This document shows, in pieces, positions 5,777-11,926 of a stretch of 36,393 bases of DNA. Position 1 is the stretch's first letter, and each line of letters begins with the position of its first letter. Location of the stretch: the IMG/VR virus record IMGVR_UViG_3300020360_000006, positions 1-36,393 of that record, one strand, 5' to 3'. The notes under the pieces are model-generated. The model was not told where the DNA came from, made no database searches, and saw nothing but the letters and a program-made list of their open reading frames with translations. Origin of the DNA: a virus (Duplodnaviria; Caudoviricetes). The position numbers and the translations under genes were made by a program.

Positions 5777-7030
5777 CAATCCATCTATGTAATCTTGACG
5801 ATTACACCTATCCTCTTCCTCTAAAGCTTTACAGAAATAATGAGTATATAATCTAGCTGTAACTGTTTCATCTTTATGACCAACATATCTGCTTATGTCA
5901 TAACTGCTATAAATGTTGTGTCTTTTCCAATATGTAATGCACCAATGCCTGAAGAAATGAAATTTATGACTTTTAGGCAAAGCAAACTTACCCGTTAGAT
6001 ATGGTTCAATAATTTTGTTGCATGTCCTATACACATGCCATGTTGCTCTACCATCTTTAATAAATGGAAACATAATATTATTGTTGCCATAAATATCATT
6101 TTTACGATGCTCTATATATGATCGTAAATCATCTGCTAAACCTTTTCCCACTGGTATTAGACGTTTTCCTGCCGGTGTTTTAACATCCCTCTTATAAATA
6201 TCCTTCTGACTTATCTGTCCCCGTATATCTAATTTAGGCATAACATTTCCCGTACTATCTATAAAATCATTTATCTCAGCACCTAATACTTCTCCAATTC
6301 TTAAACCCAGTTGAAAACAAATTCTGACAATTAATTTAGCAGTGACATCATCAATAGAGTTTCTAAATTCTTTGACATGATCAAAATGCCACTTTTCTAC
6401 TAAATTCATTGTTTCTGCTTTATGAGTCTCAGTATCGACTTTTAAAAGTAATTTGTTAATAGGATTTTGTTTGTACTGCACAATTGGATTTTCAAGCTTG
6501 GCATCATAATCATTTGTATTTGTTGAATTGTAAAAAGCATCTTGCACAACTTTTAGATATGCACCAAGAACATTAGGAGACTTAGTTTGCTTTCTAAACA
6601 TATCAACTAATTTTGCAGAGTCACTGCCCTCCCAATCTCTAATGTTTTTACATGCCATATGATCATCAAGACAAACTATCTTAATGACTTTTTTTGCCAA
6701 ACCATGCTTGTAATTAAAATTGCCTTGAGACATCCTATTGTTGATCCTAGCCATCTCATATTGTTTTATTAAATTACTAATTGACTGAGGTAGAGTTGCT
6801 TTAGGTCTAGGTACAAGTATCTCTCCACGATCTATTTTTTTTATAGCAGATGCAATGGCAACAACTAGATCTTCATGTTTCTTTCTAGTTATTTGTTGTA
6901 CTGATCCGTCAATTAATTTTAATCTTGTTTGAAAATTTTTAAATCGTTTAACTCCATCTCTATCTTTTGTATATGTTTTATATACTTGTCCTTGACCATA
7001 TTCTTTTTGCCATCGTTGTATTGTGTCCAT
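5768..7030 (-). CDS. int: Tyrosine recombinase / phage integrase
   Basis: Catalytic motifs GLRIGE (R), KTPAGKR (K), HFFRH (HxxR), VGH and LYTH (Y); GAAGGAG RBS before the ATG. Confidence 0.95.
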   Translation of the reverse strand: MDTIQRWQKEYGQGQVYKTYTKDRDGVKRFKNFQTRLKLIDGSVQQITRKKHEDLVVAIASAIKKIDRGEILVPRPKATLPQSISNLIKQYEMARINNRMSQGNFNYKHGLAKKVIKIVCLDDHMACKNIRDWEGSDSAKLVDMFRKQTKSPNVLGAYLKVVQDAFYNSTNTNDYDAKLENPIVQYKQNPINKLLLKVDTETHKAETMNLVEKWHFDHVKEFRNSIDDVTAKLIVRICFQLGLRIGEVLGAEINDFIDSTGNVMPKLDIRGQISQKDIYKRDVKTPAGKRLIPVGKGLADDLRSYIEHRKNDIYGNNNIMFPFIKDGRATWHVYRTCNKIIEPYLTGKFALPKSHKFHFFRHWCITYWKRHNIYSSYDISRYVGHKDETVTARLYTHYFCKALEEEDRCNRQDYIDGLLF

Positions 7031-7194
7031 AATTTTACTCCTTCATAAAAATTAATAAATTCCAAAACATACTTCATAAGTTCAGGGTTATTTTTATTTA
7101 ATGCGTCAATTTCCTCTTGTGTCAGAGCTTTAGATCCATGACGATCATCCATCAAATAAGTATCAACTCTTTGTTTATTCATTTTACTTATCAT
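6919..7194 (-). CDS. Small hypothetical protein overlapping the int start
   Basis: GAAAGG RBS-like sequence upstream; 112-nt out-of-frame overlap with int. Confidence 0.4.
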   Translation of the reverse strand: MISKMNKQRVDTYLMDDRHGSKALTQEEIDALNKNNPELMKYVLEFINFYEGVKLWTQYNDGKKNMVKDKYIKHIQKIEMELNDLKIFKQD

Positions 7195-7261
7195 TGTTCC
7201 AGATACCTTTCTGTTTGTAAATAATGAGGAACTATATAAATATTATGTATAATATTCCTAT

Positions 7262-7523
7262 ATTCACTATGTTTAGAGTTTCACTCATACGGAATGAAAA
7301 TCAAAAAAACGCTAGATTTACTGGTATTTAATTTATCGTAATTTAAAGGTTTTTTAGTTTTTGGGGCGAATCAACAGCTTATAAATCTTGGTACATAATA
7401 TTCTTGAACTTACTGTGACCCGCCAAAATCCTTAACTTTTTAACCCTTCAATCTAAAAAATTAATTATAAGTTCACTAACATTGTAGCCAGTATACACTA
7501 TTAGTGAACAAATGTAAGTGAAT
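7262..7523. other. attP: attP region with TTCACT arm-type repeats flanking the core
   Basis: Non-coding gap next to int; TTCACT at ~7263, ~7280 and ~7472 (+) and ~7503 and ~7517 (-) flanks a host-gene fragment at 7390-7426. Confidence 0.75.
7379..7426 (-). other. yebC: 5' replacement fragment of host yebC (MAGHSKFKNIMY, then QDL-stop), predicted att core
   Basis: Minus strand reads TTG GCG GGT CAC AGT AAG TTC AAG AAT ATT ATG TAC C, the conserved alphaproteobacterial YebC N-terminus MAGHSKFKNIM(Y/H)R. Confidence 0.85.
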
Positions 7524-7696
7524 TATTTTTCTAAAATTTCTGAATGGATTTCGCTGACTTGTAAACGCAATATATCAATTTCACTTTCGCACCACGCATT
7601 GTCATATAACTTTACTCTTTCAAAAAATATAAGAAATTGCAATGCAGTCATAAAAGCTATACTAATTATTATCGTTGCATAAAATGTAAATTTCAT
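7523..7696 (-). CDS. Small membrane protein, 57 aa (not in ORF track)
   Basis: MKFTFYATIIISIAFMTALQFLIFFERVK...EILEK*; ATGA-coupled to the upstream ORF. Confidence 0.65.
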   Translation of the reverse strand: MKFTFYATIIISIAFMTALQFLIFFERVKLYDNAWCESEIDILRLQVSEIHSEILEK

Positions 7697-7872
7697 ATCC
7701 TGCCATAAAATGAATTAAATTTAATCCTGCCTTCTTCCTCAGATAAGATAGTTTCATTGTATCTTCTTCTTTCACGATTTGCCCATCTTAGCCATTTTTG
7801 GAAATTTGCTTCATAAGACGCATCAACGTCCATCTCAAACAACTCATCTTGTTGTATGATCAAATTGCTCAA
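7693..7872 (-). CDS. Hypothetical protein, 59 aa (not in ORF track)
   Basis: TTG start overlapping the upstream TGA; MSNLIIQQDELFEMDVDASYEANFQKWLRWANRERRRYNE...GRI*. Confidence 0.65.
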   Translation of the reverse strand: MSNLIIQQDELFEMDVDASYEANFQKWLRWANRERRRYNETILSEEEGRIKFNSFYGRI

Positions 7873-10895: not shown

Positions 10896-11135
10896 TAACC
10901 TCTTACAAGTTATAAAGGAGTTGTAGGTCGCTGTATTTTTGCAACACTAAAGTTCGAATTATTCGAATCATCAATGTTACCTAAAACTAATAATAGTGCG
11001 ATTTAATTTACAATGCAAAGAAAAGATAGCCACTTTAATATTTAATTTATATTAACATGAATTAAATATATAAATAACATTGAAAATCCAATGTTTTTAT
11101 GTAGCCAATATATTATGTAGATAGTTCTATTTTAT

Positions 11136-11780
11136 TTACTTTTTAATTTGATATGACGAACACATCTCTTCAATCTCATCCACAGACATATCATGCCAAG
11201 TGTAATTAAAATCAGTTCTCGAAACAGGAATTACAAATTCTATTTTATTGTCATCAAATTTTTTACCTATTTCCCACCATTTACTAGTTTTGCCTAGTGA
11301 AAGCCTAATAAATGTATATTTACCTGATTTAGTTTTTACAAAATATAACCCGCTTGTTTTTACAGGATTATTTTGACTTTCTATAAAAGTTCGGGCATCC
11401 ATTTGACGATGTTTTTCCATAAGCATCATGCAATGATCATTTACGTCATGTATACAAATCAAATTATCTACATGATTTAAATAATTTTTAAGTATAACTT
11501 TTTTATTTTTTGCAGATAATGGGTCGTTAATTGTAACAATGTCAGATACATATGGGTGTATATATCCATTTACTTCAGCGATCACATCTGTCGGTTCAAA
11601 CAACTCAAACCAAGTTTTGCCTACAATATCAGCTATTTTTTTTGCTGTTTTAACGTCCAATTTTCTTGTTCCATTGACAATTTTATTAAAATTGATCCTT
11701 GATTGACCAATTTGTTCTGCCATACTTGTTTGGCTTATGTTGGCATTGCTAAGTATTTCTTTTAGATAATTTGGTTTCAT
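11136..11780 (-). CDS. CI-like XRE HTH repressor
   Basis: ISQTSMAEQIGQSRINFNKIVNGTRKL HTH; GAGGAG RBS; divergent from a cro-like gene. Confidence 0.85.
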   Translation of the reverse strand: MKPNYLKEILSNANISQTSMAEQIGQSRINFNKIVNGTRKLDVKTAKKIADIVGKTWFELFEPTDVIAEVNGYIHPYVSDIVTINDPLSAKNKKVILKNYLNHVDNLICIHDVNDHCMMLMEKHRQMDARTFIESQNNPVKTSGLYFVKTKSGKYTFIRLSLGKTSKWWEIGKKFDDNKIEFVIPVSRTDFNYTWHDMSVDEIEEMCSSYQIKK

Positions 11781-11897: not shown

Positions 11898-11926
11898 TTT
11901 ACAAGTAGCCAAGAATATCGTACCAA
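11898..11926 (+). promoter_or_regulatory. Putative cro promoter TTTACA-17-TACCAA
   Basis: -10 ends 6 nt before the cro ATG; no SD sequence. Confidence 0.5.

Follow-up and report, generated by a model that had tools for sequence, protein, structure and literature searches.

The virus record IMGVR_UViG_3300020360_000006, a 36.4-kb phage contig analysed here over its whole length (36,393 nucleotides, nt; below, the window), carries genes for terminase, portal, capsid, tail, repressor and integrase proteins. Beside its tyrosine integrase gene (int) lies a short stub that repeats the beginning of the host gene yebC. With a probability of roughly 0.85, this feature is a phage attachment site (attP) carrying a 5' fragment of yebC that would restore the gene upon integration, and the host is SAR11 clade IV. 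An initial annotation of the window had proposed that the attP carries a substitute 5' end for yebC, with the crossover within or at the end of some 37 bp. This proposal is now supported, short of the proof that a junction would give, by conservation of the stub, synonymous-only change within it, symmetry of the predicted core, and the match between phage spacers and host alleles.

The yebC stub and its conservation

On the minus strand, positions 7426..7379 read TTG GCG GGT CAC AGT AAG TTC AAG AAT ATT ATG TAC CAA GAT TTA TAA. Rereading this strand bore out the stub as first described, and the tyrosine integrase that adjoins it is intact. The stub peptide is the N-terminus of proteins scoring above the NCBIfam cut-offs for YebC/PmpR, which confirms the family named for it at the outset. 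The stub of one related phage locus, L020, is 24 amino acids (aa) long and gave no NCBIfam match, being too short for one.

The likeness is not due to chance, as matches to a degenerate 10-codon pattern are rare and all lie upstream of homologous integrases (3/3 matches among 2.9 M IMG/VR contigs). A looser 8-codon pattern gave 11 matches, comprising six related phages, one full-length yebC and four unrelated chance matches, the latter not reading MAGHSKFKNI. No exact 27-nt match of the fragment was found in IMG/VR. An IMG/VR contig with a guanine-cytosine (GC) content of 63% (L259) carries a full yebC followed by a RuvC-like open reading frame (ORF); it is probably host flank and lies outside the phage family.

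The stub accompanies one clade of integrases. A single-sequence integrase scan of IMG/VR yielded no matches; in an integrase-led search, the fragment was present upstream of int in all six IMG/VR loci with integrases 50-56% identical to that of the window. In metagenomes, 15 loci were found and 12 examined; L012 and L013 were set aside as apparent duplicates of the L004 and L005 contigs, and L019 because it comes without upstream DNA. Seven of the 12 have the fragment, including L020, where the integrase is 30% identical and the stub reads ATG-AGHSKFKNIQYRKG. The five others are L015, which is truncated, and four loci with distant integrases (26-27%). Among 21 loci with distant integrases, several of them with short flanks, the fragment was found in none. 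The integrase family itself is small, with nine representatives under an E-value of 1e-30 in a set of 1.84 billion proteins.

Across seven phage sequences, all seven alternative codons at positions 2-10 are synonymous (P ~5e-6 if substitutions are uniform and 5e-4 if only transitions occur, by a rough null that leaves phylogeny out of account), and the surrounding 380 bp of the attP regions are just 47-78% identical among six lineages. Judging from this pattern, the stub is under selection as coding sequence. The TTG start is found in 6/7 phages against none of 46 candidate hosts, all of which have ATG, and an AGY codon at Ser5 in 7/7 phages against 6/46 hosts. Since these two traits are shared by the phages and rare in hosts, we infer that the phage arm evolved within phages while the peptide was kept.

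Predicted crossover and candidate host

Seven phage sequences were scanned for inverted repeats with spacers of 6-8 bp and 9-bp arms. In four of them the best repeat centres on yebC nt 31-37, with 6 of 9 arm positions matching in the window (P 0.04), 7 in L006 (0.005), and 8 each in L007 (0.0008) and L018 (0.0003). These nucleotides (7390-7396) look like the crossover, enclosed by inverted core-binding sites as in an attP of the lambda type. The spacer is ATGTACC in the window, L004, L005 and L006, CAATACC in L018 and L020, and CAATTTC in L007. Where phage and host share the 7-mer, their identity breaks off at nt 37-39 (at nt 44 for L020), in agreement with the earlier expectation of a yebC match reaching to about TAC C. 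A relative in sequencing run X7 has no differences in 7390-7426 among the rows listed; at window position 7382 it lacks one base of the right arm, like L004 and L005.

A pattern scan over about 55 of the 64 GTDB parts yielded 120 loci. These either continue as YebC or break off where the contig ends, and in one of them (L107) there is a frameshift after yebC codon 21. By translation, none of the 120 runs on into phage-like sequence. The two loci with the lowest GC, L086 and L059, are from single-cell genomes (G001 and G002) of f__AG-422-B15, assigned to SILVA SAR11 Clade IV in the supplement of PMC11247762. The yebC start pattern occurs in 46/60 genomes of this family. Their 7-mer at the predicted crossover is ATGTACC in 19, CAATACC in 13, ATGTATC in 5, CAATTTC in 4, and others in 5 genomes. 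All three phage spacers are found in clade IV yebC, together in 36/46 genomes, and the CAA-TTT-C host allele had been expected from phage L007 before it was found. L006, L007 and L018 have a near-identical left arm and three different spacers; because these match different clade IV alleles, we predict that the 7 bp of the spacer serve as a key to host alleles.

In an alphaproteobacterial sample of 401 genomes, 317 matched a wider pattern, with 320 matches, of which 150 were listed; two genomes in the sample are flagged as unpublished and bear on these tallies alone. By eye, ATGTACC is common among the listed matches, and CAATACC and CAATTTC occur in 0 of these 150 of 320. As ATGTACC alone is common across Alphaproteobacteria, the host of the window has to be read from its sister phages, and it is mainly from these that we infer SAR11 clade IV. 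Five genomes of the order's other family begin YebC differently, with MAGHSHWAGIKHKKG; two of these, when compared, were 85% identical in 16S to three AG-422-B15 genomes. The GC content is 31-35% in host yebC loci and 33% in the window.

Could the attP be real and the host be another low-GC marine alphaproteobacterial lineage, instead of or besides clade IV? MAGHSKFKNIMY with ATGTACC is found in many Alphaproteobacteria, the left-arm codons of the phage are unlike most clade IV alleles, no prophage was seen in 60 family genomes, and the zero count of CAATACC and CAATTTC rests on the 150 class matches listed out of 320. Nevertheless, these two 7-mers occur in 17/46 clade IV genomes against none of the 150 class matches listed, and phage and clade IV agree in GC. 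To a weak degree, it also counts that contigs with 0-2 differences from clade IV yebC come from runs that hold phage relatives as well. On balance, we consider another host unlikely.

The spacer alleles also bear on a role without integration, in which the 15 residues of the stub would imitate the N-terminus of YebC, or its RNA would be a decoy directed at host yebC or the ribosomes. Such a role would fit the purifying selection seen on the peptide, and window 7380-7490 folds somewhat better than shuffled sequence (z -2.5). However, 7290-7400 shows no such advantage in folding (z +1.0), the phages have unrelated tails beyond residue 12, the 7-mer follows host alleles to the exact nucleotide, and neither the inverted repeat nor the constant position beside int would be explained. 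We therefore regard this role as very improbable.

Some candidate traces in bacterial genomes were rejected. Genome G007 and the left arm of phage L007 have an exact run of 26 nt in common; there is no sign of local gene conversion, as the initial codons of yebC in G007 have not diverged from relatives further than the remainder of the gene. The yebC of this genome (L153, G007:C2) has an in-frame TGA at codon 128 and is otherwise intact. In the closed 1.33-Mb alphaproteobacterial chromosome G608 there is a second yebC start of 169 bp (L196:2940-3108 / L197:2967-3135), consisting of 78 bp of upstream sequence and about 30 codons, about 977 kb from yebC. No integrase-like ORF is among the ORFs listed there, and we judged this copy unrelated. 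Short and long members of YebC clusters, considered as possible junction products, are alternative start calls, fragments or mis-clustered proteins.

Proposed mechanism and the search for integrated copies

In all 46 clade IV loci, yebC starts 0-5 nt after the upstream stop. The upstream gene is ymdB, preceded by the gene for 5-formyltetrahydrofolate (5-formyl-THF) cyclo-ligase (ygfA, 5-FCL), as seen in two loci read and one scanned. While ruvC usually follows yebC, in both loci read the next gene encodes a PD-(D/E)XK nuclease of 124-126 aa (L086:2305-2679 and L059:2312-2692). It matches Pfam PDDEXK_15 above the cut-off and Hjc weakly, and is named Holliday junction resolvase by the Joint Genome Institute. 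Two parts of the initial picture change with this: yebC was noted as often lying upstream of ruvCAB, and its own promoter was expected to face int after integration, a place that would instead be taken by the operon transcript, given that yebC abuts ymdB in 46/46 loci. Possibly, ruvC of clade IV has been displaced by a phage-type resolvase after yebC.

In the proposed mechanism, the tyrosine integrase would cross over at ATGTACC (codons 11-13) with clade IV yebC. Integration at this point would cut yebC and the nuclease gene off the ygfA(5-FCL)-ymdB operon transcript, and because of this the phage would have to bring a promoter, a start and codons 1-10. At one end of the integrated phage, attR, these would indeed be of phage origin (with TTG as the start), YebC would be identical in amino acids, and transcription of yebC and of the nuclease gene behind it would be restored. 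At the other end, attL, host codons 1-12 would run into the QDL-stop of the phage and then on towards a small ORF and int. YebC relieves ribosome stalling at proline-rich stretches, for which it needs positively charged residues on the surface of domains I and II; residues 1-12 are not named in the available part of that report (PMC12234827). Much more tentatively, the family as a whole may integrate into protein-coding genes of uncultured clade IV bacteria, swap 7-bp spacers to choose strains, and bring the ribosome-rescue factor YebC and the operon's nuclease of Holliday-junction type under the control of a phage promoter that overlaps with a site for a phage regulator, GGCTACA, thereby rewiring host translation and repair in lysogeny.

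A number of results weigh against integration at this site. The integrase is absent from the GTDB contigs scanned, from five candidate hosts, from 60/60 genomes of the family and from 401/401 genomes of the order, and the capsid is absent from 60/60 family genomes. Hence, the homologous integrases that the initial annotation had thought might adjoin yebC did not appear in the GTDB, family and order genomes scanned, and the attL/attR junctions it had hoped for were found neither in genomes nor in run contigs. In contigs of four runs aligned to the phage, no loose end falls at the core, and in contigs of four runs aligned to host yebC, no junction is among the loose ends listed (208 further). 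The longest contig listed with a family integrase, 40.8 kb, is phage-sized. Moreover, core symmetry at nt 31-37 is not seen in L004, L005 and L020, the longest exact run shared by phage and host is just 13-19 bp, the left arm differs from most sampled hosts, and the exact host strain was not found. Finally, the candidate promoter is a weak consensus, and the stub has no conserved Shine-Dalgarno sequence and, in place of the ATG of 46/46 hosts, a TTG start. The negatives on junctions are weak, as the species representatives searched are incomplete genomes and rare forms are lost from contigs; the run searches covered contigs only, with one run common to the phage and host-yebC sets.

The want of integrated copies in any search would also be expected of a relic or rarely used site, left by ancestors that integrated into yebC and were succeeded by mostly lytic phages, the fragment being kept by recent descent or repeated capture of host alleles. 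However, the catalytic residues of the integrase are intact, and the amino acids of the stub are kept while the surrounding DNA has diverged to 47-78% identity. The arm traits are rare in hosts (TTG 0/46, AGY Ser 6/46), so they evolved in phages with the peptide kept. Even a relic would require past recombination at the yebC site. We find this account improbable.

The mechanism class is known; new, as far as we have searched, appear to be the 5' end of yebC as target, SAR11 clade IV as host, and a correspondence between spacer alleles and those of the host. According to Farrugia et al. (2015; PMC4482086), dusA-associated integrases, found in prophages and genomic islands, substitute a 5' end of their own for that of dusA and supply promoter elements. 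The likeness lies in this design of a replacement 5' end with a promoter (here, the codons are seen and the promoter is suggested by conservation alone), and membership is not claimed, as those integrases target dusA/dusB and the fragment of this phage is yebC. Unlike theirs, the replacement fragment of this phage encodes the same amino acids over 12 codons, and since host yebC is part of an operon, a promoter that the gene did not have would need to come with the element. Excision of dusA-associated integrase elements was shown by the polymerase chain reaction (PMC4482086), whereas this phage is known from sequence alone.

Known temperate pelagiphages, all of those known at the time, use bacterial attachment sites (attB) in transfer RNA (tRNA) genes, as stated in PMC8477408. 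Phages of the HTVC019P and HTVC010P types have cores of 11-46 bp and Pelagibacteraceae hosts (bioRxiv 10.1101/410191; PMC8477408). The phage studied here is like them in its tyrosine integrase, predicted intergenic core beside int, probable SAR11-order host and putative replacement of the 5' part of the target, the last described for several pelagiphages in the same texts. It differs in its predicted target, a protein-coding gene of clade IV, and in that the integrase has no tblastn match among 50,697 GenBank phage records. The tRNA loci that the initial annotation had named as an alternative for close integrase homologs received no backing: ARAGORN, which would let short tRNA fragments escape, detected tRNA genes neither in the window nor in any of 27 related loci.

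The best match of the portal protein is in Pelagibacter phage HTVC106P (MN698244), with 46% identity over 96% of the protein, and the capsid is 40% identical. HTVC106P has a similar genome size and related portal and capsid proteins; unlike for this phage, no integrase was found, either among its 70 annotated features or by tblastn. As to yebC, the initial annotation knew of no use as a phage attB. For the 5' site this stands, with no report in the literature searched, outside of which most subscription papers fall. For the gene as such it does not, as 'Oral phage 12' was reported to integrate, putatively, at the 3' end of a YebC/PmpR-family gene of an oral bacterium (bioRxiv 10.1101/633727). 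There, the C-terminus is altered from AIMDEEE to SILINE, whereas this phage would enter at the 5' end.

If the attP reading is true, it links a marine phage group to SAR11 clade IV, of which the 60 genomes searched have neither this integrase nor this capsid. It would also add a non-tRNA integration site for a phage of the SAR11 order, against the tRNA-only picture in PMC8477408. Since the replacement arm has drifted synonymously and the exact match is 13-19 bp, it would account for the failure of host prediction by sequence identity with such phages. Host range as determined by the overlap could be tested directly on the three spacer alleles that occur in nature, and selection to rebuild the start of yebC suggests that YebC matters even in streamlined genomes.

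Flanking motifs, neighbouring genes and distant integrases

The coordinates of all features are given in Table 1.

Table 1. Predicted and identified features around the yebC stub, in window positions
Feature	Position	Strand	Basis
15-codon stub ORF with TTG start: YebC residues 1-12 (TTG-AGHSKFKNIMY), then QDL-stop	7379..7426	minus	in all close relatives with enough flank
Putative replacement 5' end of yebC, 37 bp	7390..7426	minus	codons 2-10 differ only synonymously among phages
Predicted 7-bp crossover (overlap) ATGTACC: yebC codons 11-12 and first base of codon 13 (nt 31-37)	7390..7396	minus	inverted repeat; host allele match
Predicted left core-binding arm AAGAATATT	7397..7405	minus	6/9 matches to reverse complement of right arm, P=0.04
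Predicted right core-binding arm AAGATTTAT	7381..7389	minus	likeness to host gene ends here
Candidate replacement promoter CTTACA-17-TATACT	7490..7518	minus	9/12 consensus; same offset in 5/6 lineages
GGCTACA motif, likely phage-protein binding site (operator or arm site)	7483..7489	minus	position conserved
GATTCG motif, candidate arm or accessory site	7367..7372	minus	+53/+54 in 5/6 lineages; +81 in L020
attP arms, TTCAC/GTGAA repeats on both sides of core, candidate Int arm sites	7263..7522	unassigned	role inferred
Tyrosine integrase, 420 aa	5768..7030	minus	PF00589 30.1 bits vs cut-off 27.1; phrog_1 E 5e-22
Small ORF, 91 aa, upstream of int, candidate directionality factor or regulator	6919..7194	minus	like-placed small ORFs in L001-L003, L020

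The initial annotation had the phage supply a promoter together with the TTG start. The start stands, and a conserved candidate promoter, CTTRCA-17-WATAMT, lies at -91/-92 in 5/6 lineages; promoter-like patterns in the window are not above shuffles in number (7 vs 4.9 +/- 1.9). By contrast, the -10-like element first pointed out, GGCTACAAT at 7481-7489, is doubtful: GGCTACA recurs near the repressor (11136-11780) and beside integrases without the fragment, and so probably binds a protein rather than serving as a -10. In five lineages the motif is at -62/-63, and L020 has it twice elsewhere. GGCTAC flanks the repressor gene at 11101-11106 and 11905-11910, and there are 3-4 copies upstream of 8/8 distant integrases counted, which come without a yebC fragment. 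The argument is positional, the motif not being enriched genome-wide (5 seen, 6 expected). On both sides of the repressor (window 11074-11125 and 11900-11915), TGTAGCCAAT / AGTAGCCAAG motifs, the reverse complement of GGCTAC, are candidate operators.

AAGGA (7429-7433), pointed out at first as lying upstream of the stub, is hardly credible as a conserved ribosome-binding site, being too near TTG, just 2 nt before it, and absent in L006, L007 and L018. Copies of TTCAC/GTGAA, a pentamer common genome-wide, are at 7518-7522, 7504-7508, 7472-7476, 7280-7284 and 7263-7267. These repeats, GGCTACA and GATTCG keep their positions among lineages and are candidates for arm-type integrase sites. No intrinsic terminator was found in window 7000-7700.

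The stub is flanked by the last early gene (7523-7696) and by the 91-aa ORF, which precedes the integrase. This ORF has no Pfam or PHROG match, and a promoter-like TTTACA-17-AACAAT (7193-7221) lies by it. Residues R244, K284, H358-x-x-R361, H385 and Y395 of the integrase, which we take to be the catalytic R-K-H-x-x-R-H-Y set, are invariant in 10 family members; with these residues and the PF00589 domain, the protein belongs to the tyrosine recombinase (phage integrase) family.

Sister integrases may use other coding genes likewise. At L211:1200-1232, with an integrase 26% identical, the upstream intergenic region reads ATG-RVKIYQPAKT followed by unrelated codons and a stop. This stub resembles the N-terminus of NDUS4 (PF04800), which in clade IV starts MIVKIYKPAKT or MKAKIYKPAKT, and may mark a second protein-coding target; the exact stub pattern was found in 0/151 order genomes. 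On the minus strand of L212 and L219, about 900-1000 bp upstream of int, VRLxLxKNLEKTE-stop is encoded with synonymous differences (by eye), which may be the substitute 3' end of some host gene. No source gene for it came out of a search at DNA level in 201 order genomes, and target searches for distant integrases gave just AT-rich matches inside genes. Upstream of int in L210, L212, L219, L224 and L023 there are variable small ORFs parted by a GC-rich hairpin-like repeat (CACCCC...GGGGTG), an arrangement that resembles a small cassette array ahead of int.
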